Notes under the pieces: model-generated
Seen by the model: only the letters and a program-made list of their open reading frames with translations
Databases searched by the model: none
What the model was told of the DNA's origin: nothing
Assembly: GCA_964599225.1 (NCBI GenBank)
Contig: CAZRDO010000001.1
Location: forward strand, 15,153-79,152
DNA: 64,000 bases
Direction: 5' to 3'
Source of the DNA: an uncultured Candidatus Saccharibacteria bacterium
GTDB lineage: Bacteria > Patescibacteriota > Minisyncoccia > Phycocordibacterales > UBA9973
Position numbers and translations under genes: made by a program
Part shown: positions 10,762-36,557 of the stretch, piece after piece
Numbering within the stretch: position 1 is the stretch's first letter
How the letters are laid out: the number at the start of each line of letters is the position of its first letter

Positions 10762-11934
10762 CTATCGTTTCGTTCTTCGCAAAAACGCAGGGACATTCCA
10801 TTCTTCATCGTCATCACCTTCAAAGACGCTCTCATCAACTTTCTTTGGCGCTGTTGCACTCTCGGAACGTTTTACATAATCGGAAGGCAAGGTGTTGTGG
10901 ATCTCCTTTTTTGGCGCATCGAGAGGAGTGTCATTCTTGGACCCTGCTGCTTGAGTGAAAAGAGATTTTTTTGGTCCATCAGTAGGGAAGCCGGTTGCGA
11001 TGACAGTAACTTTGATTTCACCTTTTTTCAAGCGCTCATCCTTAATCGTACCGAAGATAACCTTGGCATCTTTATCGATACTCTCAGTGATAATTCGAGC
11101 TGCTTCTTGGATTTCAAGTATACCGAGATCGTCGCCACCAGAGATTGCAAAGAGTACACCGTGAGCGCCATTGATTGAGATATCGAGAAGTGGAGAGTTG
11201 ATCGCTTCAAGCGCAGCGTGTTCTGCACGCTTGTCGCCACTTGCTGTTCCAATACCCATGAGGGCTGAACCAGCGTCTTGCATGACTGCGCGAATATCTG
11301 CGAAGTCGACGTTGATCACGCCTGGAGTAGTGATGAGATCAGTGATACCTTCAACTGCTTGGCGAAGAATATCATCACAGAGTGCAAAGGCTTGTTTGAA
11401 TGACATTTCCTTACTTGCAATCATGAGGAGTCGATCATTTGGAATGACGATGATTGCATCAACTTCGTTTGAGAGTTCTGCGAAAGCCGCTTCAGCAATG
11501 CGTCCACGTTGGGCACCTTCGAAGGCAAATGGTCGTGTGACTACGCCGACTGTGAGAATACCTTGCTCCTTGGCAGCGCGAGCAACAATAGGGGACGCTC
11601 CGGATCCTGTACCACCACCGAGTCCGGTTGCGATAAATACCATGTCAGCACCTTTGATGACATCTTGGATTTCAGCTTTGGTTTCTTCTGCAGCTTTTCT
11701 TCCCACATCTGGACTCATGCCAGCGCCAAGACCCTTGGTAAGGTTCTTACCAATGTGAATTTTCTTATCAGCAAGTGATTTGTGTAAGTCCTGCGTATCG
11801 GTATTCATGGCGATGAATTCGACACCCTTGACTTTGGAATTAATCATGTGATTAATTGCATTTCCACCCGATCCGCCTACGCCGATTACCTTAATTCGGG
11901 CAAAAGATTCTATGTCTGGATTAACTTTTGGCAT
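10762..11934 (-). CDS. ftsZ: cell division GTPase FtsZ
   Basis: GGGTGSG tubulin signature within VIGVGGSGGNAINHM…FIATGLGGGTGSGASPIVA, 390 aa with an acidic C-terminal tail. Confidence 0.95.
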   Translation of the reverse strand: MPKVNPDIESFARIKVIGVGGSGGNAINHMINSKVKGVEFIAMNTDTQDLHKSLADKKIHIGKNLTKGLGAGMSPDVGRKAAEETKAEIQDVIKGADMVFIATGLGGGTGSGASPIVARAAKEQGILTVGVVTRPFAFEGAQRGRIAEAAFAELSNEVDAIIVIPNDRLLMIASKEMSFKQAFALCDDILRQAVEGITDLITTPGVINVDFADIRAVMQDAGSALMGIGTASGDKRAEHAALEAINSPLLDISINGAHGVLFAISGGDDLGILEIQEAARIITESIDKDAKVIFGTIKDERLKKGEIKVTVIATGFPTDGPKKSLFTQAAGSKNDTPLDAPKKEIHNTLPSDYVKRSESATAPKKVDESVFEGDDDEEWNVPAFLRRTKR

Positions 11935-12028: not shown

Positions 12029-13189
12029 TTAGGGAAGGAGTTGTTTGAAAAAGTTTTTGATCGTGTCTTTGAATGTTCCTTCATCGACATCATAATGTCG
12101 CTCTGTTTGGGCACCAAGAAGTGTACTGTAAACAGGAAGACCTGCTGCAGTGAGCCAAACTGCATCTTTGGGAATAAATTTGTTTCCTTTCAATTCAAAT
12201 TCTCCGATGCGGGCAGGAAGTCCGAGCACATCACGTGCGATCTCAGCTATATGTGCAATACGTGCGCCACCACCAGTGAGAATGACACCAGCCGGGAGGA
12301 GGCCACTGCGTTTAATTTTACGAAGCTGTGCATCGATGTGTTCAAATATATCAATGAGTCGCGCAGAAATGATTTCTTGAATTTTTTTCTGTGAATGTTC
12401 CTGAAAAATATTTCCAATTTTTATACTCTCAGCTTCTTCAAGCGAGACCTTTAATCCAAGAGCAATATCATTAGTGATATCGTTTGAACCGATTGGGATG
12501 ACGAAGAGAAGCGTGACAAAGTCATCTTCAAATACTGAGACTGACACTGTATCTGAGCCAATATTAATCACTGCGCACCCAGCTGTGCGCTGTTTTTCAT
12601 TGGTCGAAATAATACTTCCCGCTAGTGGCCCAGCAATGACATCAACAACATCAAGTCCAACAGAGCTCGCGACCGAAACGAAATCATCAACGTGTTGAGC
12701 GAGAATACTAATGAAGAGTGCTTTGGTATCAAGCTTAATGCCTTGCATACCCTCAGGTCTACCAATGACAGGCTTCGAATCAATTGAAAATGAAAGGGGA
12801 ATAGTGTGGAGGATTTTTCTATTGGTGAGTTTTAAACTATGTTCAGCATCACGAAGCGATTTTTCTACATCAAGTGAGGTCACTTCACCATCTGCTTTAG
12901 ACATGATCGCAGAACCTACTGCAATCGAGGAGAGAAGTCCGACCCCATTTGCAGCGAGTATGGCATGTCTTGGTGAGACACCCGCGACGCGTACTGCATC
13001 ACCGAGCGCACGCTTGACTGACTCAAGGGCTTTATGTGGATGGATGATATAACCTTCGCGCATACCAAGAGCATCAGCACTACCAGTGCCAATAATTTTT
13101 GGGAATTTTTCTCCCTTTTCAAATTGTGCGATTGCAATTCTTGTGGTGCTTGATCCAATATCAATACACGCAACAGTATTTCTGGCCAT
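12029..13189 (-). CDS. ftsA: cell division protein FtsA
   Basis: Actin-fold ATPase (ACIDIGSSTTRIAIA…) directly upstream of ftsZ in the conserved ftsA-ftsZ order. Confidence 0.9.
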   Translation of the reverse strand: MARNTVACIDIGSSTTRIAIAQFEKGEKFPKIIGTGSADALGMREGYIIHPHKALESVKRALGDAVRVAGVSPRHAILAANGVGLLSSIAVGSAIMSKADGEVTSLDVEKSLRDAEHSLKLTNRKILHTIPLSFSIDSKPVIGRPEGMQGIKLDTKALFISILAQHVDDFVSVASSVGLDVVDVIAGPLAGSIISTNEKQRTAGCAVINIGSDTVSVSVFEDDFVTLLFVIPIGSNDITNDIALGLKVSLEEAESIKIGNIFQEHSQKKIQEIISARLIDIFEHIDAQLRKIKRSGLLPAGVILTGGGARIAHIAEIARDVLGLPARIGEFELKGNKFIPKDAVWLTAAGLPVYSTLLGAQTERHYDVDEGTFKDTIKNFFKQLLP

Positions 13190-13911: not shown

Positions 13912-15879
13912 CTACTGTATGAGCCCTTCTGGGTTAATAGTAGTCGAAAGTGCTTCTTGGGCCATCTCAATGAGCATCTCTCTACAGCGCATAGACTCGG
14001 GTGATGGTGGAAGAGTCATTAATGCTTCCCAGTAGGGAGTAGGAATCCGCACCATCACACAAGTACCAGAAATATATTTCCCACGTATTACCTCGTTGAA
14101 TGCAAATGTATTGAGTTCAACGACATATGGGTGTTGTATGAGCTCGTCAGTAAGTGGTGCATTATTTTTGAAAATAAAACGTACGGTCGTCACAAATGGG
14201 CTATAGTGAAGTTCTTTTCGCTCTTCGAGATCATCACGAATAATTTTTGGATAGGCAGACCGTTCAATATCGGTGAGGACTTTATTGTCAGGTGCCCGAG
14301 TCTGGACGATACAGGCATCTATCGCAAGTGCACGAAGTAGCAAAATGAGTCGTAATGCTTTTTCGACTACGACATAAATTGGAAGTGAGAACATTGAATC
14401 GATCGACACGACTACGACTGTAGCAATATCTTTGAGATACGGAATTGCTTGTTCGGTGCCCACAAGAATACCTCCTTCAGTTTCGTAAAATTTCTTTATG
14501 AAAAGTTCTCGAGCACGGATGGTCTTGATAGTACTCTGATCAAAGGGGAATACTCGCTCATCACCAAAGTCTTTCTTTAATTCATCAATAATACGTTCAT
14601 TACCCAGACCGTATTCCTTGAGATTCCAGCTTTTACAATACGGACATGCAAAGTTTGCACGCTCGACGATGCGACAGCGATTACACATGAAATAACGCTC
14701 CTCAACTTTTTTAATAGTTGCTGATTGATTTTTCTGTTTAGTAATTATTTTGTCCGTATAAAGTACGAGTGGACTTCCACAGCGTCCACAGGCACAGATA
14801 TGTCCACAGTCCTGACAGAGTGTTGTTGTTGCCAAGCCTTTGCGATGAGTGAGTACAAAGACATGTTTCCTTTGGCGAAGTGAATCTGCTATCTGCTTTC
14901 CAGTCTTACTCGAGAAAACCTTGAATTTATTTTTATCCTTTATTGTCGCTTCATCGTCCAACATATTTACAATCGAAAAGGTTTTCTGCTCTCTAGGGGC
15001 AATCGTGAGTGGTCTCAGTTCTACAAATTCTTTAAGCTGGTGTCGATAGAGTGTTTCAAATCGCAAAAGCGTATCTGCCAGAATAAATCGTACATGGAGT
15101 TCTTCCGCAAGTATCTCAAGCAATACTCTCCAATCAATCTGATTACGATCAAACGTACGGTAATCACTTGAAGACTCACGTTCCAAAATTATAGTTCTGA
15201 GATCACGTCGGGGTATTGTCGAAAATGAGGGAGTAGCAATAATAAGTACCGGATGGGTTTTACTAAGAATTTCTCCGATCATTTTCTTTATGACTGGATT
15301 GGCTAGTTGACTATGTAGTGTATACACATATTCTCCTATGCCACGTGCTACTTCTTGTTCGATACGGATACATTCAATTATCGTCGGGGCAATAATCATG
15401 CAGGATTCGTTGCGGGCAAAAGCTTCTCGCACGAGTGTTCGATACAGTGACCTGCGCTCATCAGTAGGAAGCTCTAAGACACATTTTTCTGACTGTGGAA
15501 GTTCATGTGTCGATCGAGCTACAGTTGGTGACTTGGCAGAGAGTGTCTCATCAATAAGGGTGAGCGGTAAGAGAAGTCCGAGCATACTACTCGTACTCGT
15601 CAGAAAATGGAGTGCAGAGCGCTTTGCTGTAGTAAATAATGCAGACGAAAATGGAGAAGGCCCAAGTGCGCGGATTACTTTTTTCATTTTAAACCGTTCT
15701 TTTTTCAGCGAGAGTTTTGTGGTTTCAATTGGTCGTACTTCTACTACTAATGCAGTAACCTCTCGACTGCCGATCATAACGACAACCAAATCTCCCTCAC
15801 GGATATCAAATGAGGAAAAGTAGGATAGGGTGTCTTTGGGCAGTCCACGCACTATAGGAATTACGGAAACGGAGATCAT
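13912..15879 (-). CDS. priA: primosomal protein N' (PriA) homolog with degenerate Walker A/B motifs
   Basis: N-terminal 3'-DNA-binding-like domain and the PriA Cys-rich zinc-binding region (CQDCGHICACGRCGSP…CNRCRIVERANFACPYCKS). The helicase core aligns to PriA but has LPTDERRSLY in place of GxTGSGKT and ILERE in place of DEEH. Confidence 0.6.
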   Translation of the reverse strand: MISVSVIPIVRGLPKDTLSYFSSFDIREGDLVVVMIGSREVTALVVEVRPIETTKLSLKKERFKMKKVIRALGPSPFSSALFTTAKRSALHFLTSTSSMLGLLLPLTLIDETLSAKSPTVARSTHELPQSEKCVLELPTDERRSLYRTLVREAFARNESCMIIAPTIIECIRIEQEVARGIGEYVYTLHSQLANPVIKKMIGEILSKTHPVLIIATPSFSTIPRRDLRTIILERESSSDYRTFDRNQIDWRVLLEILAEELHVRFILADTLLRFETLYRHQLKEFVELRPLTIAPREQKTFSIVNMLDDEATIKDKNKFKVFSSKTGKQIADSLRQRKHVFVLTHRKGLATTTLCQDCGHICACGRCGSPLVLYTDKIITKQKNQSATIKKVEERYFMCNRCRIVERANFACPYCKSWNLKEYGLGNERIIDELKKDFGDERVFPFDQSTIKTIRARELFIKKFYETEGGILVGTEQAIPYLKDIATVVVVSIDSMFSLPIYVVVEKALRLILLLRALAIDACIVQTRAPDNKVLTDIERSAYPKIIRDDLEERKELHYSPFVTTVRFIFKNNAPLTDELIQHPYVVELNTFAFNEVIRGKYISGTCVMVRIPTPYWEALMTLPPSPESMRCREMLIEMAQEALSTTINPEGLIQ

Positions 15880-15993: not shown

Positions 15994-17007
15994 ATGGCCT
16001 TATTTTCAAATCGTTTAGGAATAGATTTAGGCACCGCCAATACGCTTGTATTCGTACCAGGTAAGGGAATTGTATTAAATGAACCTTCAGTGGTGGCGAT
16101 TTCCGAGGTAAATAATCGCGTACTTGCTATCGGAAATGAAGCGAAAGAAATGATTGGCAAAACCCCGGAGAGTATTATTGCCTACCGTCCGATGAAGGAT
16201 GGTGTTATTGCTGACTACCGTGTGACTGAAGCCATGCTACGATACTTTATTGATAAGGCACTTGGTAAATTTCATTTCTTCAAACCTGATGTCATGATTT
16301 CTGTGCCAGCCGGCGTCACCTCAACTGAACGACGCGCAGTCATCGAAGCGGCACTCCGCGCTGGTGCGAAAAACGCCTATGTGGTCAAAGAGCCTATACT
16401 TGCCGCGATTGGTGCTGGGATTCCTATTCACGAATCCTGTGGACATATGGTTGTCGACATTGGTGGTGGCACAACAGATGTCGCCGTTATTTCTCTTGGG
16501 GGTATCGTGGCATCAACCTCAGTGAAATGTGCGGGTAATAAAATTGATCAGGCAATCACAGACTATATAAAGCGGGCATACAATTTAGGAATTGGTGATA
16601 AGACGGCCGAAGATATCAAGATAAAAATTGGAGCGGCGGTACCGCTTGAGGAGAATCTCACAATGACAGTCAAAGGGCGTGATTTTATTCAAGGGCTTCC
16701 ACGTACGACAGAAATTTCGACCAATGAAATCGTCAAAGCAATTGATAGTGAGCTTCGTCAGATACTCAAGGCAATCAAAGATGTGCTCTCAGAGACACCA
16801 CCAGAACTTGCCTCCGACATTATTGATAAGGGTATTATCATGACTGGTGGTACATCACAACTTCGTAATTTCCCAGAACTTGTTTTTCGAGCGACTGGAG
16901 TTAAAGCCAGACTTGCTGACGATGCACTCTATTGTGTTGCCAAGGGTACCGGCATTGCGCTTGCCCATCTTGATTCATATAAACGTACTATTATAAGTAA
17001 ACGTTAG
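15994..17007 (+). CDS. mreB: rod-shape determining actin homolog MreB
   Basis: LGIDLGTANTLVF…MVVDIGGGTTDVAVISLGG, the typical MreB phosphate-1/2 motifs. Confidence 0.92.
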   Translation: MALFSNRLGIDLGTANTLVFVPGKGIVLNEPSVVAISEVNNRVLAIGNEAKEMIGKTPESIIAYRPMKDGVIADYRVTEAMLRYFIDKALGKFHFFKPDVMISVPAGVTSTERRAVIEAALRAGAKNAYVVKEPILAAIGAGIPIHESCGHMVVDIGGGTTDVAVISLGGIVASTSVKCAGNKIDQAITDYIKRAYNLGIGDKTAEDIKIKIGAAVPLEENLTMTVKGRDFIQGLPRTTEISTNEIVKAIDSELRQILKAIKDVLSETPPELASDIIDKGIIMTGGTSQLRNFPELVFRATGVKARLADDALYCVAKGTGIALAHLDSYKRTIISKR

Positions 17008-21973: not shown

Positions 21974-23281
21974 ATGATTTTTGGAGATCTCCTCACTATT
22001 GGTTCACGCGAAGCACTCTACTATGTGTGGCATTATATTCCGTATGCGATTGTACCTATTCTTGGATTAGTTTCTTGGCATATGTGGCTTAATTACATTC
22101 GCCATGCCTATCTTGCCTCGCTTAATTTTAAGCTTCTTGAAGTCAGAATTCCCCAAGAAATTTGGAAATCACCGCAAGCGATGGAATTTATTCTGATGAA
22201 CGCCCTCTATCAAACAGGTGGTGTCTCAACTTGGAAGGCAAAGTATTGGGATGGCAAAGTCTTACTCTGGTTTTCGCTTGAGATTACTTCGATCGAGGGT
22301 GATATCCATTTTTATATTCGTTGTCCCGCACAGTATAAATCTCTTGTAGAATCACAAGTATATTCTCAGTATCCTGATGTCGAAATTGCCGAAGTGCCAG
22401 ATTACACAGAAGCCGTTCCACCTTTTACGAAAGATAATGGTTGGGAGATGTTTGGTTGGCAGTACAAACTTGCAAAGCCCGATCCATTTCCAATCAAAAC
22501 CTATATCGACTACGGTATGGACAAGCAATTCTCACTAGAAGAAGAACAGAAAATTGATCCACTGACTCCGCTGTTAGAATATTTTGGTTCAATTGGTAAA
22601 GGTGAACAGCTTTGGATGCAGATTATTACTCGTGGAGTGCCTGCGAAAGGTACCTCAGCGTTTTCATTTGGTCGCTACCCATCAAAAGATCATTACTTCC
22701 AAAAGGATTCACTTCAGGAACTTGGTGCCCAACAGAGAGCTGAATATATAAAAAAGGAAATTAAGGCACTTGTTGATTCAGGTCTTGTGACGGCCGATAA
22801 AGCCAAAGATAACCCAATTGCGCTTCTCACTGATGAGAAAAAGGATGTACTTAAATCAATGGAGCGAAATATGCAGAAGTTTTCATTTGACTGTGGTATG
22901 AGAATTCTCTACATAGCACACAAGGATAAATACTCTGGTATGCAGGTACCAAACCTCTCGGTACTCTTTAGACCATTTAGTTCGCCATTTTCAAATACTA
23001 TTGTTCCATCAGGTGCCAAAAGTGCTGTGGCGTTTGACCATCCCTGGCAAGATTTTTCAGGTAACCGCTTTTTACGTAAGAAAATTGACTTCTTTAAAGC
23101 CTACAAGCTTCGCCAATACTACTATCCACCTTTTTTTGATACGACACATCAAGATCCTTTCGTACTCTCAACTGAAGAACTCGCGACACTCTACCACTTC
23201 CCAGGACGTGTTTCAGAAACTCCGTCATTTAAGCGCATTGATTCCAAAAAAGCTGAGGCTCCGACAGACCTTCCGATTTAA
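21974..23281 (+). CDS. hypothetical protein, 435 aa, N-terminal membrane helix
   Basis: Long intact ORF, aromatic-rich, with no catalytic motifs recognised. Confidence 0.45.
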   Translation: MIFGDLLTIGSREALYYVWHYIPYAIVPILGLVSWHMWLNYIRHAYLASLNFKLLEVRIPQEIWKSPQAMEFILMNALYQTGGVSTWKAKYWDGKVLLWFSLEITSIEGDIHFYIRCPAQYKSLVESQVYSQYPDVEIAEVPDYTEAVPPFTKDNGWEMFGWQYKLAKPDPFPIKTYIDYGMDKQFSLEEEQKIDPLTPLLEYFGSIGKGEQLWMQIITRGVPAKGTSAFSFGRYPSKDHYFQKDSLQELGAQQRAEYIKKEIKALVDSGLVTADKAKDNPIALLTDEKKDVLKSMERNMQKFSFDCGMRILYIAHKDKYSGMQVPNLSVLFRPFSSPFSNTIVPSGAKSAVAFDHPWQDFSGNRFLRKKIDFFKAYKLRQYYYPPFFDTTHQDPFVLSTEELATLYHFPGRVSETPSFKRIDSKKAEAPTDLPI

Positions 23282-28793: not shown

Positions 28794-30557
28794 ATGCAAT
28801 CTGAAGAAATCCGAAAGCGATTCCTCACATTTTTCGAGAAACGTGGCCATGCAATCTTGCCTTCGGCCTCACTTGTACCTGAGAATGATCCATCAGTACT
28901 TTTTAATACTGCTGGGATGCAGCCACTCGTACCATATCTGCTTGGTCAGAAGCATCCGTCAGGAAATCGACTGGTGAATATCCAAAAATGTGTTCGCACA
29001 GGTGACCTTGATGATATCGGCGACAATCGCCACTTCTCATTCTTTGAAATGATGGGCAATTGGTCGTTAGGTGCATATTTTAAAGAAGAGGCTATTGAGT
29101 ATAGTTTTAAATTTTTAACTATTGGAGATAATGAAGATGAAGGCAACAAGGGTCTTGGACTTAATCTATCCCAACTTTATGTTACGGTATTTGAAGGTGA
29201 CGAGAATGCTCCGTTTGATGAAGAGTCAAAGAAGGTTTGGATGAAGTTCGGAATTCCTGAAAATCGCATTTATGCGTTACCTGCTGATGACAACTGGTGG
29301 AGCCCAGGAGACAACGGCCCATGTGGTCCATGTACCGAAATGTTTTACGATGTGACTGGTAGGATTGGAGATCTGTCGCATGAGCAATTTATTGAAGCGG
29401 TCAAAAAAGAAGATGTAATCGAAATATGGAATGACGTTTTCATGGAATATGAAAAAAAAGATGGAAAGGTTATCGGTAAACTTTCACAACGCAATGTTGA
29501 TACCGGTGCTGGTCTTGAGCGAATCACAGCTGTCATGCAGGGCAAGAAGACTGCATATGATACAGATTTGTTCGGGGGGATAATCACAAATCTTAGAAGT
29601 GCTGCAATAAATAAAGATGAGAGAGCAATTAGAGTAGTAGCAGATCACATAAGAACAGCTATTTTCATTATTAATGATGGAGTTCTGCCCTCCAACAACG
29701 GTAAAGGCTACGTATTACGAAGATTAATTCGTCGTGCAGTTAGATTTGTGGATTATCTTGGTCTTAAATATGGAACCATTGATTTCTTGGTTGATGATTT
29801 TATTCAAAAATATAAAGATGCATATCCTGACTTAGTAGTTAATCTCGAACACATCAAAAGAGAACTAGATAAAGAAGAAATCAAATTTCATCAAACACTG
29901 GAAACTGGCCTAAAAGAATTCGAGAAAGGCACTGATCCATTTGTCCTGTTTACCACCTATGGTTTCCCAATTGAACTGACGCTCGAGCTTGCCACAGAAA
30001 AGGGACAGATAATTGATCTCGATGATTTCAATATAAAAATGGTAGAGCATCAAAAGCTTTCCCAAACTGCTTCAGCTGGTATGTTCAAAGGTGGACTCGC
30101 CAATCATAATGAGCAAACAATTAAGCTCCACACTGCCCACCATTTATTACTTGCTGCACTACAACAAGTCTTGGGCAAAGAAGTTAAGCAGCGGGGAAGT
30201 AATATTACCGAAGAGCGATTGCGAATAGATTTTGTATTTGATCGGAAGATGACTGATGAAGAGAAGATCAAAGTTGAAAATAGTGTAAATGAGTGGATTA
30301 CACAAGACCTTGAAGTAGTACGTAAGGAAATGCCACGCGAGGAAGCTAAAAAGATCGGAGCAGAAATGGAATTTGGTGCCAAGTATCCTGATATGGTTTC
30401 TGTATATATGATTGTCGATAAAGATGGTAATCCGATATCCAAAGAATTTTGTGGTGGCCCACATGTCTCACGTACGAGTGAACTTGGAATTTTTAAAATC
30501 CAGAAAGAAGAAGCTTCATCACAAGGTGTACGAAGAATCAAAGCAATTCTTTCTTAG
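28794..30557 (+). CDS. alaS: alanine--tRNA ligase, short form lacking the C-Ala domain
   Basis: Class II catalytic core (FFEKRGHAILPSASLVP…), tRNA-recognition region and editing domain (HTAHHLL…CGGPHV), ending right after the editing domain at 587 aa. Confidence 0.9.
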   Translation: MQSEEIRKRFLTFFEKRGHAILPSASLVPENDPSVLFNTAGMQPLVPYLLGQKHPSGNRLVNIQKCVRTGDLDDIGDNRHFSFFEMMGNWSLGAYFKEEAIEYSFKFLTIGDNEDEGNKGLGLNLSQLYVTVFEGDENAPFDEESKKVWMKFGIPENRIYALPADDNWWSPGDNGPCGPCTEMFYDVTGRIGDLSHEQFIEAVKKEDVIEIWNDVFMEYEKKDGKVIGKLSQRNVDTGAGLERITAVMQGKKTAYDTDLFGGIITNLRSAAINKDERAIRVVADHIRTAIFIINDGVLPSNNGKGYVLRRLIRRAVRFVDYLGLKYGTIDFLVDDFIQKYKDAYPDLVVNLEHIKRELDKEEIKFHQTLETGLKEFEKGTDPFVLFTTYGFPIELTLELATEKGQIIDLDDFNIKMVEHQKLSQTASAGMFKGGLANHNEQTIKLHTAHHLLLAALQQVLGKEVKQRGSNITEERLRIDFVFDRKMTDEEKIKVENSVNEWITQDLEVVRKEMPREEAKKIGAEMEFGAKYPDMVSVYMIVDKDGNPISKEFCGGPHVSRTSELGIFKIQKEEASSQGVRRIKAILS

Positions 30558-30585
30558 AATCATTTGCTTGGTATATAATAAGACC

Positions 30586-31767
30586 ATGTTTTTTGGAAGT
30601 AAAAAGAAAAATGGAAATTCAGATCTTAGACTTTCTATTGACTTAGGCTCTGGTTCAGTTGGAGCCGCGCTAAGTCACACCATAGTAAAAGATGGTAAGA
30701 CGAAAACTGAAATCCTTGCTAGCGTACGCAAGCCTGTTTTTTTCAAAGATGATTTAAATTTCCAGATTTTTCTCACGGGCATGATGAGCGCGCTCAAGCA
30801 GGCACTCACTGAAATCCATGACGTACATATTGGTACTCCATCGAGTATCTCAGTATTTCTTCGTGCTCCGTGGTATAGCGCACAAGTAAGGCGCGTTGTC
30901 TCTTCACGGGACATAGAGTTTTCTGTGACCCATAAACTATTAAATGAAATGCTTCGTCGCGAATCGGACATCTTTGAATCAGCTGCGAATGCGAAATATC
31001 AGGAACTGCATAATGCGCTCGAAACGATTGAAGAAAAGACGCTCAATGTCGAGCTCAATGGCTACCCTGTGAATCACCCAATTGGGGCACGTGCTAAATC
31101 ACTTGCCCTCACTTTTTATATTAGCGCTAGTCCCAAAATCGTTCTTGATACGATAACTGATACTGTGCGTGGAATTTTCCCACACAAAAAAATTGTATTC
31201 CATTCGTATCTACTCTCACTCTATGTACTCATTAGGGATTTCGTAGGTGCCCAGGAAGATTTCATATTCTTAGATATAGGTGCAGAAATCTCAGAAATTT
31301 CAATAATTAAAAGTGGAGTTCTGACCCAATCAGCGACATTTCCAATCGGTATACACAATATCGTACGAGCACTTATGGATGGGTATACGATTGGTTTTGA
31401 GTCGGCCTATTCGAAAATTAGAATGTATTCAGAAAAAGCACTTAGTCTTGATGAGCAAAACAAAATTTCTGGTATACTAAAGAGCGTAAATGAAAATTGG
31501 GTAAAGGAATTTAGTAACGGGCTGACGAGTCTCATGAAAAATGGAACAGTGCCAAGCATACTCTATCTTAGTGCAGACGAAGCAATACTTACTTGGAGTA
31601 AGGAGGTGATTGAAAATGAGGCATTCCATCGCTATACTGCTACTGACCGAGCTTTTGAGGTTATTCCGATCGCGACGAAACTATTTGCAGACCATATTCG
31701 ACTCAGTACTAATGTTGCCCGTGATCCATTTCTTGCCGCTGAAGTACTCTATCAAGCTACTAACTAA
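30586..31767 (+). CDS. actin-like ATPase of the FtsA/PilM superfamily
   Basis: N-terminal phosphate-1 motif LSIDLGSGSVGAALS and actin-fold length (~394 aa). The upstream part of the ORF (30412..) overlaps alaS, so the start was set at MFFGS. Confidence 0.5.
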   Translation: MFFGSKKKNGNSDLRLSIDLGSGSVGAALSHTIVKDGKTKTEILASVRKPVFFKDDLNFQIFLTGMMSALKQALTEIHDVHIGTPSSISVFLRAPWYSAQVRRVVSSRDIEFSVTHKLLNEMLRRESDIFESAANAKYQELHNALETIEEKTLNVELNGYPVNHPIGARAKSLALTFYISASPKIVLDTITDTVRGIFPHKKIVFHSYLLSLYVLIRDFVGAQEDFIFLDIGAEISEISIIKSGVLTQSATFPIGIHNIVRALMDGYTIGFESAYSKIRMYSEKALSLDEQNKISGILKSVNENWVKEFSNGLTSLMKNGTVPSILYLSADEAILTWSKEVIENEAFHRYTATDRAFEVIPIATKLFADHIRLSTNVARDPFLAAEVLYQATN

Positions 31768-31775
31768 TTATTTAT

Positions 31776-33224
31776 ATGCCAAAAAATATTGAAGATATTA
31801 AACCACCGAAAAAAGAGCCATCAGCTTTCTTTCTAGAACTATCAAAAGCCAAAGCAGAGGCTGTAGGTAAGAAAACAACAAAAGCAACTGCTCGAGTTGA
31901 GGTAGAAAACGAAACTTCATTTGAGAGAAGTGAACCTAGACCAATGGCTGTTACTGCTCCGCAAGAAATTGATACAAGGGAATCACGCGTTTACTCACGT
32001 GAACCCGAGCCAGTTGTTACACGTTCATATAGAACACCAACGTCACGCCGATTTTTGTTCAGGAAACGTGTATGGGTCAGTGCAATAATCTCAGTGTGCG
32101 CTCTAGTCGCTGTACTCTCGATTGTTTTTTCGGGGACAAAGATTACGGTGACTCCAAAAGTTGCTGATTTCACTGTCAGTTCTTCGTACACGGCTTCAAA
32201 AGATAGTGTCACTAACTTATCATTTCAAGTTATGTCTCTAAAAGATACTAATACTGTTTCAGTGGCCAAAAGTGGCACTGCTACGGCTCCAACTAAATCG
32301 ACTGGCACAGTGGTACTTTATAATGCCTATAGTACAAGTCCACAAAACCTTTTAATAAATACTCGTCTCACACGGCCCGATGGCAAGATTTACTTTACTG
32401 ACAAGGCGCTTACTATTCCTGGATTCACAACAAAGGATACTGTTGTGACACCTGGATCTATTGAAGTAACGGTTACTGCTGAAAATTCAGGTGAAGCCTA
32501 TGATAGTGAAGCAACTGATTTCAAGATTCTCGGTTTCAAAGGTTCAGCAAAATACGACAAAATCTATGGTAGATCTAAAACTGCACTTACAGGTGGCACA
32601 AACGAGCTGCAAAATACTATTACGCTAGCAGAAGCAACTACCGCTTTTGAGCAAGCAAAAGGCGGGTTAAGAGACAAGCTTCTGGAAAAAGCGCGAGCAC
32701 AAATTCCTGCTGACTTCATACTCTACGATGATGGTGTCTTTATTACCACCGATACTTTGGCACCAAAGGTTTCCTCAAAAGAAGAGCAGATTCCGGTGGT
32801 TGCTAGTGGTACTCTCACGGCTATCTTCTTCTCAAAAGCTACCCTTACCAAAACAATCATGGAAGAACATTTGAAGGCTCCAGTTAATGCAACAGACATT
32901 CTTATAACAAATCTTGAATCACTTGAGTTTAAGATCCAGAACAAGCAATTAATTGATCCACTTACCGCTAAGAATATTACATTTAGTGCTTCAGGAGCTC
33001 CTCATGCACTCTGGCAGATTGATGAGACCAAAGTTAAAGAAGCACTCAGTGGCAAGCCCAAAAGTGAAGTGGGCACAATTTTGGAATCGTTCCCTGGTAT
33101 ACTTCATGCAAGAGTGACCATGCGACCGTTCTGGGCGACTAAATTACCTACTGATCCAAATGAAATTACATTAATTATTGAAAGTGACGGTATAGTACCC
33201 GATAAATCTGTTGACTCAGAGTAA
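31776..33224 (+). CDS. bitopic membrane protein with a large extracytoplasmic beta-rich domain (FtsQ/DivIB- or PilN/O-like by topology only)
   Basis: ~95 aa charged cytoplasmic N-terminus, one TM helix (VWVSAIISVCALVAVLSIVF), then a ~370 aa Thr/Ser-rich outside domain. Follows the actin-like gene with a 9-nt gap. Confidence 0.45.
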   Translation: MPKNIEDIKPPKKEPSAFFLELSKAKAEAVGKKTTKATARVEVENETSFERSEPRPMAVTAPQEIDTRESRVYSREPEPVVTRSYRTPTSRRFLFRKRVWVSAIISVCALVAVLSIVFSGTKITVTPKVADFTVSSSYTASKDSVTNLSFQVMSLKDTNTVSVAKSGTATAPTKSTGTVVLYNAYSTSPQNLLINTRLTRPDGKIYFTDKALTIPGFTTKDTVVTPGSIEVTVTAENSGEAYDSEATDFKILGFKGSAKYDKIYGRSKTALTGGTNELQNTITLAEATTAFEQAKGGLRDKLLEKARAQIPADFILYDDGVFITTDTLAPKVSSKEEQIPVVASGTLTAIFFSKATLTKTIMEEHLKAPVNATDILITNLESLEFKIQNKQLIDPLTAKNITFSASGAPHALWQIDETKVKEALSGKPKSEVGTILESFPGILHARVTMRPFWATKLPTDPNEITLIIESDGIVPDKSVDSE

Positions 33225-33253: not shown

Positions 33254-33475
33254 ATGCAAAACAATAATGAGAAAGAAGAAACAATCGTCGATGGACGAGT
33301 AGTGGAAGCACTTCCTAATACAATGTTTAGGGTAGAGCTTGCAGACGGTACTATCATTCTTACCTATTTAGCGGGACGCATGAGATTGCATAGAATCAAA
33401 GTATTAATAGGCGATAAGGTCCAAATTCTGCTTGATCCATATGGGGGCAAAGGTAGGGTTGTCAAACGTTTATAA
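33254..33475 (+). CDS. infA: translation initiation factor IF-1
   Basis: S1-like fold, GRVVEALPNTMFRVELADGTIILTYLAGRMR, 73 aa. Confidence 0.9.
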   Translation: MQNNNEKEETIVDGRVVEALPNTMFRVELADGTIILTYLAGRMRLHRIKVLIGDKVQILLDPYGGKGRVVKRL

Positions 33476-33558
33476 ATACGTTATACTCTCTAGAAGTTTA
33501 GAGAGTACTAAGAAAGAGGTCATTCCTCTTCTTTGCGTGCGCTCTAAATACGACACTA

Positions 33559-33669
33559 ATGAAAATACGCTCAAGGATCAAAAAAATATGTGACAATTGC
33601 AAAATTGTGAAGCGCAAGCGTCATTTTCATGTCATTTGCTCAAATCCAAAACATAAACAAAAACAATAA
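33559..33669 (+). CDS. rpmJ: 50S ribosomal protein L36 (zinc-ribbon type)
   Basis: Hand-translated [39 protein letters not shown] (36 aa, C-x2-C…C-x4-H). Below the ORF-track size cutoff. In the conserved infA-rpmJ-rpsM position. Confidence 0.85.
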
Positions 33670-33674
33670 TTTTC

Positions 33675-34055
33675 ATGAGACTTTTAGGTATCACAATTCC
33701 AGAAGGCAAGCGACTTGAGTACGGACTCACGGAGCTCTATGGTATTGGGCTCTCAACTTCAAGAAAGATTTTGGCAGATGCAAAGGTTGACTTTGCTTCA
33801 TTACCAAAAGATGTCTCAACTGAAGCGGAGAACAAGATCCGCAAAACAATTGAGACTATGAAGCTCGAAGGTACACTTAAACGTGAAGTCTCAGCTCATA
33901 TTAAACGTCTCAAGGATATCAAGAGCTACCGAGGCGTGCGTCATATGAAGAGACTTCCAGTCAGAGGCCAACGTACCAAAACAAACTCACGCACTATCCG
34001 AGGTAATGTCCGCAAAACAATGGCGAGCGGACGTCGTAAGCTTGAGAAAACATAA
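33675..34055 (+). CDS. rpsM: 30S ribosomal protein S13
   Basis: …YGIGLSTSRKIL…YRGVRHMKRLPVRGQRTKTNSRT. Confidence 0.92.
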   Translation: MRLLGITIPEGKRLEYGLTELYGIGLSTSRKILADAKVDFASLPKDVSTEAENKIRKTIETMKLEGTLKREVSAHIKRLKDIKSYRGVRHMKRLPVRGQRTKTNSRTIRGNVRKTMASGRRKLEKT

Positions 34056-34081
34056 CATATAGATTTGTAATAATTATTCCA

Positions 34082-34519
34082 ATGGGTAAGAAAAAAATTA
34101 TAACTAAAGAAGAAGCAGGTGCTACTAGCGATGCAAAGAAAGATCCAGTAGTGTCTAAAAGCTCGAAGAAAAAAGTTACTTCGGGTACTTTGCATGTGGA
34201 AGCAACATTTAATAACACAAAGGTAGTACTTTCAGACCAAAAAGGTAATACCCTCGCTTGGTCCTCAGCTGGCTCACTGGGCTTTCGTGGAGCAAAGAAG
34301 GGTACTCCATTTGCAGCGTCAAAAGTTGCAGAAATCCTTGCAGAAAAAGCAGCCAATTTTGGAATTAAAGATGTCAATGTTGTCGTCAGAGGCGTTGGTT
34401 CAGGTCGCGAATCAACTATCCGCTCATTTATGGGACATGGGTTTGATGTCACAGGAATCGAAGATATTACCCCTGTGCCCCACAATGGTGTTAAGGCCAA
34501 AAAGCCACGTCGCGTCTAA
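34082..34519 (+). CDS. rpsK: 30S ribosomal protein S11
   Basis: …LAWSSAGSLGFRGAKKGTPFAA…VRGVGSGRESTIRSF. Confidence 0.92.
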   Translation: MGKKKIITKEEAGATSDAKKDPVVSKSSKKKVTSGTLHVEATFNNTKVVLSDQKGNTLAWSSAGSLGFRGAKKGTPFAASKVAEILAEKAANFGIKDVNVVVRGVGSGRESTIRSFMGHGFDVTGIEDITPVPHNGVKAKKPRRV

Positions 34520-34542
34520 TTTCAATTTTTTACATACATACT

Positions 34543-35145
34543 ATGAAACGATCACCACAATATAAAATCTGTAGACGTCTTGGACCGGGAGTGTTTGATA
34601 AATGTCAGACAACTAAGTTTGCCACGTCGACGACGGGTAAAAATAAAAAGTCCGGCTCACGACCTAAAGCTCTCTCTGACTACGCAGTACAGTTTCTTGA
34701 GAAACAGCGTGTCCGACTCACGTATGGTGTCACTGAGAGACAATTTTCAAATTATGTGAAGAAGGCTCAAACTGATGGAGGAAGTGCCGCAGAATCTCTC
34801 TACAAAGCACTTGAAACTCGCCTAGACAATGTCGTGTACAGACTTGGACTTGCTGCTTCACGTGCCCAAGCTCGCCAAATGGTTTCTCATGGACATTTCA
34901 CCGTTAATGGCACAAAAGTACGAGTTCCTTCCTATACCGTTAAGACTAATGATGTCATAGCAGTTCGACAGGGAAGTACAGGGAGTGCGCTATTTTCAGA
35001 ACTTGATAAGAAATTAAAGAACACTACAACTTCAGATTGGCTCGCGTTTGATATTGCAAAACTGGCTGCCACGCTCAAAGGCTATCCGAAGAATCCAGAA
35101 AGTAGTGCTGGTTTTAGTACTGTGCTTGAATTTTATAGTCGATAA
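34543..35145 (+). CDS. rpsD: 30S ribosomal protein S4
   Basis: N-terminal KICRRLG… and an S4 RNA-binding domain (RLDNVVYRLGLAASRAQARQMVSHGHFTVNG). Confidence 0.92.
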   Translation: MKRSPQYKICRRLGPGVFDKCQTTKFATSTTGKNKKSGSRPKALSDYAVQFLEKQRVRLTYGVTERQFSNYVKKAQTDGGSAAESLYKALETRLDNVVYRLGLAASRAQARQMVSHGHFTVNGTKVRVPSYTVKTNDVIAVRQGSTGSALFSELDKKLKNTTTSDWLAFDIAKLAATLKGYPKNPESSAGFSTVLEFYSR

Positions 35146-35180
35146 TTTTAATAATTAAGTGAACAGATAGTGTTATATCT

Positions 35181-36167
35181 ATGAGCGATCAAAACATCAT
35201 TCTCCCATCAAAGCCACGCGTTATCTCAGAAGAGGACATGCGAGGCGTGTACGAAATCGATAGTCTCTATCCAGGATACGGATATACGATCGGTAATTCG
35301 TTGCGAAGAATTATTCTCTCATCTCTTCCGGGAGCGGCAATTACTATTGTTAAAATAGACAATGTTGCGCATGAATTTAGTACGATCGAAGGCGTGAAGG
35401 AGGACGTCGTATTACTTCTCCTTAACCTCAAAAAAGTTCGCTTTAAGCTCAACACAGAAGAACCACAGGAAGTCATGCTTACTGTGAAGGGAGCAAAGAC
35501 CGTGACTGCGGCTGATATTAAGACCACAGGCCAAGTTGAAGTACTCAATCCAGACCAATATATCTGTGAACTTACATCAAAGAGCGCTGAAATTTCAATC
35601 TCACTCCGTATTGAAAAAGGCCTTGGATTTGTACCAAAAGATCAACATCAGAAAGCTAAAGTTGAGATTGGTACTATTGCGCTCGATGCAATTTTCTCAC
35701 CAATTCGTCGCGTAAATTACGAAGTTGAAGATATGCGTGTCGGCGATAAAACTAACTTTAATCGACTCAGAATCCTCATTGAAACTGACGGTACACTTTC
35801 TCCACGATTCGCACTTGAAAGTGCAATTAAGATTATGGTAGAACAACTCCAGGCCATGCTTGATTTTCGTGTTGAGACCCCAGGATTCGGCGGACAAATT
35901 GATGCGAGTGATGCGCTTGATGAAGAATCAGCAAGTACAGATTCACCTGAACGCAAAGAAGAGCTCGCAGAGATTATGAAAACTCGACTCGATACACTTG
36001 AGCTCTCAACCCGAGTTATGAATGCACTCACGAATGCAAATATTAGAACACTCGGTGGCCTTGTTCGAAAGCGCAAGGAAGACTTGCTTGATATCGAAGG
36101 CATGGGTGAGAAAGGAGTTCAGGAACTCAAGCGTCTCTTATCAAATTACGGAATTACGTTAAAATAA
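35181..36167 (+). CDS. rpoA: DNA-directed RNA polymerase subunit alpha
   Basis: NTD motif GYGYTIGNSLRRILLSS and CTD with helix-hairpin-helix (LELSTRVMNALTNANIRTLGGL). Confidence 0.92.
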   Translation: MSDQNIILPSKPRVISEEDMRGVYEIDSLYPGYGYTIGNSLRRIILSSLPGAAITIVKIDNVAHEFSTIEGVKEDVVLLLLNLKKVRFKLNTEEPQEVMLTVKGAKTVTAADIKTTGQVEVLNPDQYICELTSKSAEISISLRIEKGLGFVPKDQHQKAKVEIGTIALDAIFSPIRRVNYEVEDMRVGDKTNFNRLRILIETDGTLSPRFALESAIKIMVEQLQAMLDFRVETPGFGGQIDASDALDEESASTDSPERKEELAEIMKTRLDTLELSTRVMNALTNANIRTLGGLVRKRKEDLLDIEGMGEKGVQELKRLLSNYGITLK

Positions 36168-36203
36168 CTCGTAATTTGAAATTCATAATTCGTAACTAAT
36201 TAT

Positions 36204-36557
36204 ATGCGTCACAGTAATGTAAACAGAAAATTCGGCCGACCAGCAAATCAGCGACGTGCACTTCTTCGTGCGCTAGCCCTTTCACTTTTTGAACGTGGCA
36301 AAATTACTACAACACTTGCTAAAGCTAAAGAGCTTCGTCCATATGCAGAGAAGCTTTTGACACTTGGCAAACGAGGTACACCTGCAGCGCGCAAACTACT
36401 TGCATCACGCCTTTATAATAATCGCGAGATCGTGAAGAAACTCTGTGATGATATTGCACCAAAGTATGCCGATCGTGCTGGTGGATACACACGAGTTACG
36501 AAGCTTACTCGACGCCTTTCTGACGGATCAGCGATGGCTGTTATTGAATTTGTATAG
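36204..36557 (+). CDS. rplQ: 50S ribosomal protein L17
   Basis: MRHSNVNRKFGRPANQRRALLRALA… typical L17. Confidence 0.9.
   Translation: MRHSNVNRKFGRPANQRRALLRALALSLFERGKITTTLAKAKELRPYAEKLLTLGKRGTPAARKLLASRLYNNREIVKKLCDDIAPKYADRAGGYTRVTKLTRRLSDGSAMAVIEFV

Follow-up and report, generated by a model that had tools for sequence, protein, structure and literature searches.

In this study we examined a pair of adjoining genes in a 64,000-nucleotide stretch of DNA (the window; contig CAZRDO010000001.1, positions 15,153 to 79,152) from a genome labelled as an uncultured Candidatus Saccharibacteria bacterium. The first open reading frame, ORF1 (30586..31767, + strand), encodes a cytoplasmic actin-fold protein of the FtsA/PilM class with 393 amino acids. 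The second, ORF2 (31776..33224, + strand), encodes a 482-residue bitopic membrane protein with its N-terminus inside the cell, and its outer domain is predicted to adopt the fold of phage baseplate wedge subunits. This combination of an FtsA/PilM-type actin-fold protein with an outer baseplate wedge fold has not been described before, and full-text literature searches found no publication describing the pair. The two proteins probably constitute a module that spans the membrane and is conserved in Patescibacteria of the Paceibacteria type. The mechanism we favour, at a probability of roughly 0.5, is that ORF1 docks on a conserved N-terminal peptide of ORF2 and thereby would link an actin-like scaffold to an outer wedge scaffold for envelope growth or division. 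An earlier reading made from the letters of the DNA alone (the sequence-only reading) had suggested a lineage-specific envelope-spanning module at this place, and this is still the best description of the pair.

The two genes share one orientation and the stop codon of ORF1 is separated from the start of ORF2 by 8 nucleotides (nt). Their conserved upstream neighbour is alaS (28794..30557, + strand; a short form of 587 residues), and ORF2 is situated directly 5' of infA (33254..33475, + strand), which is followed by the likewise conserved rpsM-rpsK-rpsD-rpoA-rplQ. The ATG of ORF1 is nested in a longer ORF that begins with TTG at 30412; support for the ATG comes from the N-termini of homologues and from the database protein P0001, which has 393 residues and 100% identity. 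The ORF2 call is likewise backed by homologues, by the structural model and by synteny. Sequence searches returned homologues of both proteins with E-values down to 1e-88 or better, and the window has a GC content of about 40% without a compositional break. For the estimates of nonsynonymous (dN) and synonymous (dS) divergence we used the related locus L126, which has identical synteny and 74-77% protein identity; pepF was left out, as it was misaligned. The dN values were 0.17 for ORF1 and 0.16 for ORF2, with dS saturated, and they were 0.25 for alaS and 0.15 for mnmA. Thus, ORF1 and ORF2 are intact genes, and purifying selection acts on them to a degree comparable with alaS and mnmA. The possibility that ORF1 is a pseudogene, which the sequence-only reading had named as fatal to its proposal, fails because of the homologues, the confident AlphaFold models and the low dN. 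Neither protein has an above-threshold family in Pfam or NCBIfam, and neither is named in public sources. A perfect TATAAT is located at 30574-30579 (within 30565-30585), 6 nt 5' of the ORF1 ATG, where no obvious Shine-Dalgarno sequence was seen; it could represent an internal promoter or a near-leaderless start. Matches in a promoter and terminator scan were not above the shuffled expectation.

The AlphaFold (AF2) model of ORF1 reached a predicted local distance difference test (pLDDT) value of 90.9 and a predicted template modelling score (pTM) of 0.89. When it was searched with Foldseek against solved structures in the Protein Data Bank (PDB), FtsA (4a2a, 1e4g, 3wt0, 7q6i) and PilM (5eoy, 5eou, 2ych, 3jc8) were the top matches and approximately equal. 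Taken together, these structures gave E-values from 6e-20 to 1e-14 and template modelling (TM) scores of 0.53-0.73; FtsA alone gave E-values from 6e-20 to 2e-16 and TM-scores of 0.56-0.70, and PilM gave TM-scores of 0.55-0.73. The next tier, consisting of Ppx/GppA, ParM, EutJ and MreB, was about 10 orders of magnitude weaker, with MreB and ParM reaching only an E-value of 1e-8 and a TM-score of about 0.42. By these matches the model has the actin fold of FtsA and PilM, with a 1C-type subdomain in place of 1B. Since FtsA and PilM were the best structural matches, ORF1 is placed in the FtsA/PilM class of actin-fold proteins. Family profiles matched ORF1 only below their thresholds. Pfam FtsA (PF14450) matched ORF1 with an E-value of 8.3e-5 and 23.4 bits, which is under the gathering score of 31.8, and SHS2_FTSA gave no match. 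The NCBIfam matches were all weak (PilM, E 0.005; FtsA, E 0.016; EutJ, E 0.1): TIGR01174 (FtsA) scored 14.3 against a cut-off of 175.85, and TIGR01175 (PilM) scored 15.8 bits against a cut-off of 133. Pfam PilM_2 did not match ORF1. Among PDB sequences the ORF1-family profile retrieved the Thermotoga maritima FtsA at an E-value of 2.5e-4.

Both phosphate-binding motifs are present in ORF1, phosphate-1 as DLGSGSVG and phosphate-2 as DIGAEISE, and in about 65 members of the family they are mostly retained in the forms D[IV]GSxSVG and [LV]D[IV]GGExTD. The family also has an invariant glutamate (E149), a conserved ELNGYP and a conserved G255, and the pattern ELNGYPVxxPxG parallels the vDGxxvxNPxG of FtsA. 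ORF1 lacks the glycine-rich adenosine loop, and LYLSADEA stands in its place. According to the homologues and the AF2 model, the chain stops at the C-terminal helix of the fold (...RDPFLAAEVLYQATN) and has no membrane-targeting amphipathic helix beyond it. ORF1 is therefore a soluble actin-fold protein that lacks its own membrane anchor.

ORF1 is distinct from the canonical FtsA of the organism, as the sequence-only reading had stated; fold and family searches agreed on a second protein of this class. The canonical ftsA (12029..13189, - strand) matches Pfam FtsA with 85.7 bits and also SHS2_FTSA, and its product ends in the amphipathic tail TFKDTIKNFFKQLLP. It adjoins ftsZ (10762..11934, - strand), and the two genes are located about 17-18 kilobases (kb) upstream of the pair on the opposite strand. 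The earlier remark that no ftsZ is nearby was thus accurate for the immediate neighbourhood of the pair and wrong for the window. A canonical mreB is present at 15994..17007. The phosphate-2 motif of the canonical FtsA is atypical (VINIGSDT vs DxGGGT). No FtsQ-like gene adjoins ftsA in the window. The place where ftsQ usually sits, about 720 nt 5' of ftsA, is occupied by a 655-residue ORF (13912..15879, - strand) that has no Pfam match at an E-value of 1e-3. On inspection by eye this ORF, which carries CxxC...CxxC zinc motifs, resembles a divergent primosomal helicase of the PriA type.

The topology of ORF2 corresponds to what had been described from the letters of the DNA, namely a large bitopic protein with a charged tail, a single transmembrane helix and an ectodomain rich in Thr and Ser, and both the AF2 model and the composition supported it. 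Residues 1-92 are charged (19 K+R, 15 D+E) and mostly disordered. They comprise the N-terminal peptide (31776..31814, + strand; MPKNIEDIKPPKK) and a variable, basic and disordered linker (residues 14-92; 31815..32051, + strand; pLDDT 41-58) whose length and sequence vary among homologues. The transmembrane helix (residues 93-117, FLFRKRVWVSAIISVCALVAVLSIV; 32052..32126, + strand) was indicated by the AF2 helix, by a hydrophobicity maximum at residue 99 and by composition, and because basic residues precede it, the N-terminus is placed inside the cell. The extracytoplasmic domain (residues 118-482; 32127..33221, + strand) has 365 residues modelled with a pLDDT above 95, and Ser and Thr make up 22% of it, compared with 12.9% in the other proteins of the window.

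Foldseek aligned this ectodomain over 350-380 columns, which is approximately its whole length, with entire wedge proteins of 350-400 residues from phi812, A-1(L), Mu, Pa193, XM1 and Milano (E-values from 8e-7 to 4e-4), and the domain is collinear with wedge proteins of the gpJ, Mu gp47 and T4 gp6 class. Sequence profiles pointed in the same direction in the wider family. PHROG_6 ('baseplate wedge subunit') matched 38 of 61 ORF2 homologues (best E-value 3.6e-8), and Baseplate_J (PF04865) matched three of the 61 (best E-value 1.2e-4); ORF2 of the window itself had no PF04865 match and no PHROG match above threshold. Its sole Pfam match, under the gathering score, was the GlxA β-barrel (PF21110; E-value 5.8e-4) at residues 174-267, and this family was found in 29 of the 61 homologues with a best E-value of 5e-11. 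The β-barrel (32295..32576, + strand), which is of the GlxA / Baseplate-J type, is the most conserved stretch of the protein (NTRLxxPDGKIY, PGSIEV). POTRA/FtsQ, PilN/PilO and MreC were absent from the fold matches in the PDB and from the family matches. Thus, an identity of ORF2 with PilN (of PilM/PilN), FtsQ/DivIB or MreC can be ruled out by the fold and family searches, in accordance with the earlier statement that the pair resembles neither FtsA-FtsQ nor PilM-PilN. We conclude from the model that the ectodomain has a membrane-anchored, full-length wedge fold of the gpJ/gp47/gp6 class. The 'beta-type ectodomain' announced by the sequence-only reading is thus more specifically a baseplate wedge fold with a GlxA-type barrel, which had not been foreseen.

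The N-terminal peptide of ORF2 is the proposed docking site for ORF1. It is conserved across 61 homologue N-termini although the adjoining linker is variable and disordered. Its short form is M-x-K-N-x-φ-[QE]-D-[IVM]-x-P-P and the full consensus is M-x-K-[KN]-x-[LIFM]-[QE]-D-[IVM]-[VI]-P-P-x-[RK]-R, after which SIRNIPIP often comes next; in the alignment D7 is invariant and M1 nearly so. The D-[IVM] core with its surrounding pattern was found in 166 of 174 cytoplasmic regions, in 132 of them at most 12 residues from a Met, and the peptide is present in all classes of loci described below. In longer homologues the core (K-x-QFSDIV...) is internal, being preceded at the N-terminus by an additional domain of about 100 residues without a Pfam match.

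The distribution of the pair was assessed in two ways. A profile search with ORF2 against 1.84 billion representative proteins, counted as clusters at 50% identity, retrieved 12,294 clusters at an E-value of 1e-3 or better and 5,638 at 1e-30 or better. Related loci were collected with a degenerate DNA pattern over ORF2 residues 177-216, which matched at least 120 species-representative genomes, and all counts of loci given here are drawn from the 120 matches listed. A true ORF2 homologue (E-value 1e-39 or better) is encoded in all 120. All are metagenome-assembled genomes (MAGs), either of Patescibacteria or with no label beyond 'bacterium'; the groups named among them are Parcubacteria, Nomura-, Moran-, Campbell-, Ryan-, Lloyd-, Terry- and Taylorbacteria, Spechtbacterales, Minisyncoccia and Paceibacterota. 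Many carry the label 'uncultured Ca. Saccharibacteria' in third-party annotation (TPA) records, a label that is unconfirmed. The closest labelled relatives of the window among the matches listed are Nomurabacteria MAGs. Across the sampled loci, which represent many candidate phyla, the median identity of the ORF2 ectodomain to its homologues is about 28% (range 20-44%).

Gene order is well kept over this range. The infA gene is directly 3' of ORF2 in 90 of 99 loci. The sequence reaches at least 1.3 kb upstream of ORF2 in 88 loci, and about 69 of these (~79%) have an FtsA/PilM-like gene directly 5' of it. The upstream neighbour is a member of the ORF1 family in 56 of the 88. In five it is an intact FtsA-like protein with the motifs DIGGGTTD and GGGS, an amphipathic tail at its C-terminus and a score above the Pfam FtsA threshold, and in about eight it is a more degenerate actin-like protein that keeps DGHKVVNPLGF and ends in RRRxRWL. 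Twelve loci have alaS abutting ORF2, and about seven have another gene or none. The spacer between ORF1 and ORF2 has a median of about 20 nt and is at most 30 nt in 32 of the 56 loci; in L126 there is an overlap of 17 nt. The two genes thus stay together in most relatives sampled, and the order alaS, pair, infA is by these comparisons an ancestral and widespread arrangement in Paceibacteria-type Patescibacteria. Because it is common to most of the relatives sampled, the pair is ancestral to a large clade, and the earlier description of it as inserted between alaS and the infA operon of this genome has to be abandoned.

Two variants of the module were seen beside the common one. In loci of the Moranbacteria type (L025, L058, L088, L098, L105) the partner of ORF2 is the motif-intact FtsA-like protein with the amphipathic tail. 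In a sister form (L014, L030, L042, L065, L083, L034; P0063-P0068) ORF2 is extended at its cytoplasmic N-terminus by a domain of about 100-130 residues (MKKIYV..D.ITSVI...LVIPR...LLKREA...) that belongs to no Pfam family, and its partner is the more degenerate actin-like protein, in which DxGGG is lost and the tail is a basic RRRxRWL.

The two proteins also occur as one. P0216 and P0252 (855 residues, from two contigs of the European Nucleotide Archive and one residue apart) are in-frame fusions of ORF1 to ORF2, and in P0251, from a Joint Genome Institute contig and of the same 90% cluster, ORF1 runs in frame into the ORF2 tail until a frameshift interrupts the sequence. The fusion proteins are arranged as an actin-like domain, a linker with the peptide, a transmembrane helix and the outer domain, an order that makes sense topologically. 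An apparent fusion of alaS to ORF2 in L109 (583-3414, 944 residues) is spurious and was caused by a stretch of masked N in the genome record.

PilM is known to bind the N-terminus of PilN (residues 1-12), and FtsA binds the cytoplasmic N-terminus of the bitopic FtsN (residues 1-29). Complexes of both kinds (e.g., 7q6i) were among the fold matches of ORF1. By analogy, ORF1 would be recruited to the membrane through the cytoplasmic N-terminal peptide of ORF2. The wedge-like ectodomain may self-associate into an oligomeric scaffold on the outer side of the membrane, as its fold family builds rings and wedges, and the state of the actin-like ORF1 (oligomeric, perhaps nucleotide-dependent) would be coupled to this scaffold. 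The module would then have a constitutive task in envelope growth or in division, as opposed to host-specific attachment. A role in growth or division appears the most likely because the operon is growth-coupled, the ectodomain evolves slowly and ORF1 grades into FtsA-like proteins. A bolder version of this mechanism would have a phage baseplate wedge domesticated as a permanent, membrane-anchored component of the envelope, which forms a baseplate-like ring or lattice on the outside and is organised by a dedicated, FtsA-derived and largely nucleotide-independent ORF1 docked on its N-terminal peptide. As an essential and lineage-defining part of division or envelope construction it would replace missing links of the FtsQLB/FtsN type. 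This is a distinctly speculative extension.

Several observations weigh against the docking mechanism and its proposed role. In 12 of the 88 loci no actin-like gene is present within the 8-kb locus around ORF2, where alaS abuts instead, and these loci nevertheless keep the peptide (e.g., KKIFDIIPPKK). For this reason the partner of the peptide may be another protein, such as the canonical FtsA, or an ORF1 encoded elsewhere in the genome. In the long form of ORF2 the peptide is internal, whereas in PilN it is at the N-terminus. The adenosine glycine loop is replaced in all but a minority of the approximately 65 ORF1-family members, and some of them also lack the phosphate-2 aspartate, so that ATP-driven dynamics of ORF1 are doubtful. 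In the alignment of the ORF2 ectodomain no conserved catalytic-looking residues were seen, and the conserved positions are mostly Gly, Pro and structural ones, which suggests a scaffold rather than an enzyme. Neither the loci nor the window provided evidence that places the module at the division site, and linkage of the pair to ftsA/ftsZ or to the division and cell wall (dcw) cluster was found in none of the 120 loci save L034, in which ftsA-ftsZ are about 2 kb from the pair with opposite-strand genes between, which is weak evidence.

The observation that the peptide is kept in the 12 loci without an adjoining ORF1 could also be explained if ORF2 were a divisome link of the FtsN/FtsQ type with a peptide that attaches to the canonical FtsA or to machinery associated with FtsZ, and with ORF1 being an accessory FtsA paralogue that co-assembles with FtsA. 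The gradation of ORF1 into bona fide FtsA-like proteins in sister lineages is compatible with this, as are the known binding of the FtsN N-terminal peptide by FtsA (7q6i among the fold matches) and the absence of an FtsQ-like gene beside ftsA in the window. However, the pair is unlinked to ftsA/ftsZ apart from the proximity in L034, and the close spacing of the two genes, like their natural fusion, speaks for ORF1 as the protein that acts on ORF2. Moreover, the FtsZ of this organism ends in ...EEWNVPAFLRRTKR with the C-terminal peptide NVPAFLRR, which the DIxPP of ORF2 does not match. We also considered the peptide as a mimic of the FtsZ C-terminus and rejected it, since the resemblance is limited to a loose [DN]-[IV]-P. 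Although a link to the canonical FtsA is the strongest of the competing explanations, we regard it as unlikely.

The wedge fold itself invites a different role. Baseplate wedges natively belong to host-contact devices, cultivated Patescibacteria are epibionts (PMC10633639) and the ectodomain is rich in Ser and Thr, all of which would suit a surface-appendage or host-contact platform in which the ectodomain forms the base of an extracellular structure for attachment or uptake and ORF1 organises it from inside. However, an ectodomain that has a median identity of about 28% across phyla and a dN like that of housekeeping enzymes is unlike the fast-evolving proteins of host recognition. The pair is also part of a translation and housekeeping operon, and no tube, sheath, spike, fibre or pilus genes are nearby; specifically, genes for sheath, tube, spike, fibre, gp25/gpW and gpI were found neither in the window nor in the related loci listed. 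This makes such a platform less probable still.

Slightly lower we rank the possibility that the two proteins are operon neighbours without physical interaction, ORF1 being a degenerate protein with another job and ORF2 an independent envelope protein. The 12 loci with ORF2 and no adjoining ORF1, the erosion of the nucleotide motifs of ORF1 and the high variability of the upstream gene between lineages speak for this. Against these stand the fusion in three contigs, the adjacency in about 79% of loci even though the proteins have diverged to 20-30% identity, and the fact that ORF1 is anchorless yet belongs to a class that works at the membrane.

A divergent alignment subcomplex of the type IV pilus, with PilM and a PilN/PilO-like partner here and the remaining components encoded elsewhere, appears improbable. 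PilM does equal FtsA as a fold match and is the best NCBIfam match, though a very weak one; the phosphate-2 DIGAE of ORF1 resembles PilM-type motifs, and ORF2 shares with PilN the presence of a conserved peptide at the N-terminus. Nevertheless, the TIGR01175 score is far from its cut-off, PilM_2 does not match and the peptide is unlike INLLP. No type IV pilus genes (pilO/P/Q/B/C/T) were found among the annotated ORFs of the window or in the 120 loci, where the flanks recognised were alaS, infA and ribosomal genes; the earlier remark on the lack of pilus genes nearby was therefore sound. Family scores, gene context and peptide together largely refute the pilus and, with the fold searches, speak against assigning the pair to PilM/PilN. 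Finally, a remnant of a prophage or contractile injection system, to which the likeness of ORF2 to baseplate wedge subunits in sequence and fold might point, is ruled out by synteny and selection, given the transmembrane anchor and cytoplasmic tail of ORF2, the fixed place in a housekeeping operon in 120 listed species, the purifying selection, and the absence of other tail genes and of a compositional anomaly.

Some features of the surroundings are worth recording. The short form of AlaS consists of the catalytic and SAD domains only and is common to the related loci. The cluster infA-rpsM-rpsK-rpsD-rpoA-rplQ (33254-36557) is separated from the usual upstream secY-adk-map, again as in the related loci. 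At 21974-23281 (+ strand) an ORF of 435 residues without a Pfam match is located 5' of a YceG/MltG-like gene, and its homologue in L126 bears a weak DUF8128 mark.

The Patescibacteria, or candidate phyla radiation (CPR), make up a large share of bacterial diversity, and almost no lineage-specific core gene of theirs has an assigned function. The pair studied here is very widespread (about 12,300 clusters), is part of a growth-coupled operon and is under purifying selection, and the analysis supplies a defensible annotation for both proteins. If the docking model is true, it would offer a concrete handle on how ultrasmall cells build or divide their envelope.

Among known systems, PilM-PilN (2ych, 5eou) is alike in that the gene of an anchorless FtsA-like actin-fold protein directly precedes that of a bitopic, N-in protein whose extreme N-terminus is a conserved peptide. 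PilN carries the N-terminal motif INLLP, is about 200 residues long and has a ferredoxin-like periplasmic domain, and pilO/P/Q follow its gene. In contrast, the peptide of ORF2 is M-x-K-N-x-φ-[QE]-D-[IV]-x-P-P, its ectodomain is a predicted wedge fold of 365 residues rather than a ferredoxin-like PilN/PilO domain, and ORF2 is followed directly by infA in a housekeeping operon that has neither pilO/P/Q nor pilus ATPase genes; ORF1 differs from PilM also in the loss of the adenosine-binding loop. FtsA (4a2a, 7q6i) provides the best fold and sequence matches of ORF1, and the partners of ORF2 in sister lineages pass the Pfam FtsA threshold, whereas ORF1 lacks the amphipathic helix and SHS2_FTSA, stays below the gathering score and is not encoded beside ftsZ. 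The fusion protein P0216 resembles GspL/EpsL of type II secretion by its layout of a degenerate actin-like domain, a transmembrane helix and an outer domain, and the actin-like domain of GspL has lost nucleotide binding; however, the outer domains are not homologous and no secretion ATPase or pseudopilin genes accompany the pair. In MreB-RodZ, a bitopic protein with a β-rich outer domain binds an actin-fold protein through its N-terminal part in the cytoplasm. The present pair differs from it because ORF1 is of the FtsA/PilM type, with far weaker matches to MreB, and ORF2 has no helix-turn-helix domain. GlxA, the membrane-anchored radical copper oxidase of Streptomyces lividans (4unm), shares with ORF2 only the barrel (~100-160 residues), and ORF2 has neither the kelch propeller nor the copper site. 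The closest counterparts of the ectodomain are the baseplate wedges gpJ of P2, gp47 of Mu, gp6 of T4, Pvc11, Afp11 and diffocin TRI-2, with which ORF2 is collinear in fold. In contrast to them, ORF2 is membrane-anchored with a cytoplasmic tail, is encoded by a syntenic chromosomal gene in a housekeeping setting and has no sheath, tube, gp25 or gpI partners. Should the docking model prove correct, the pair would clearly exemplify how part of a phage tail can be exapted into a housekeeping structure of the cell.

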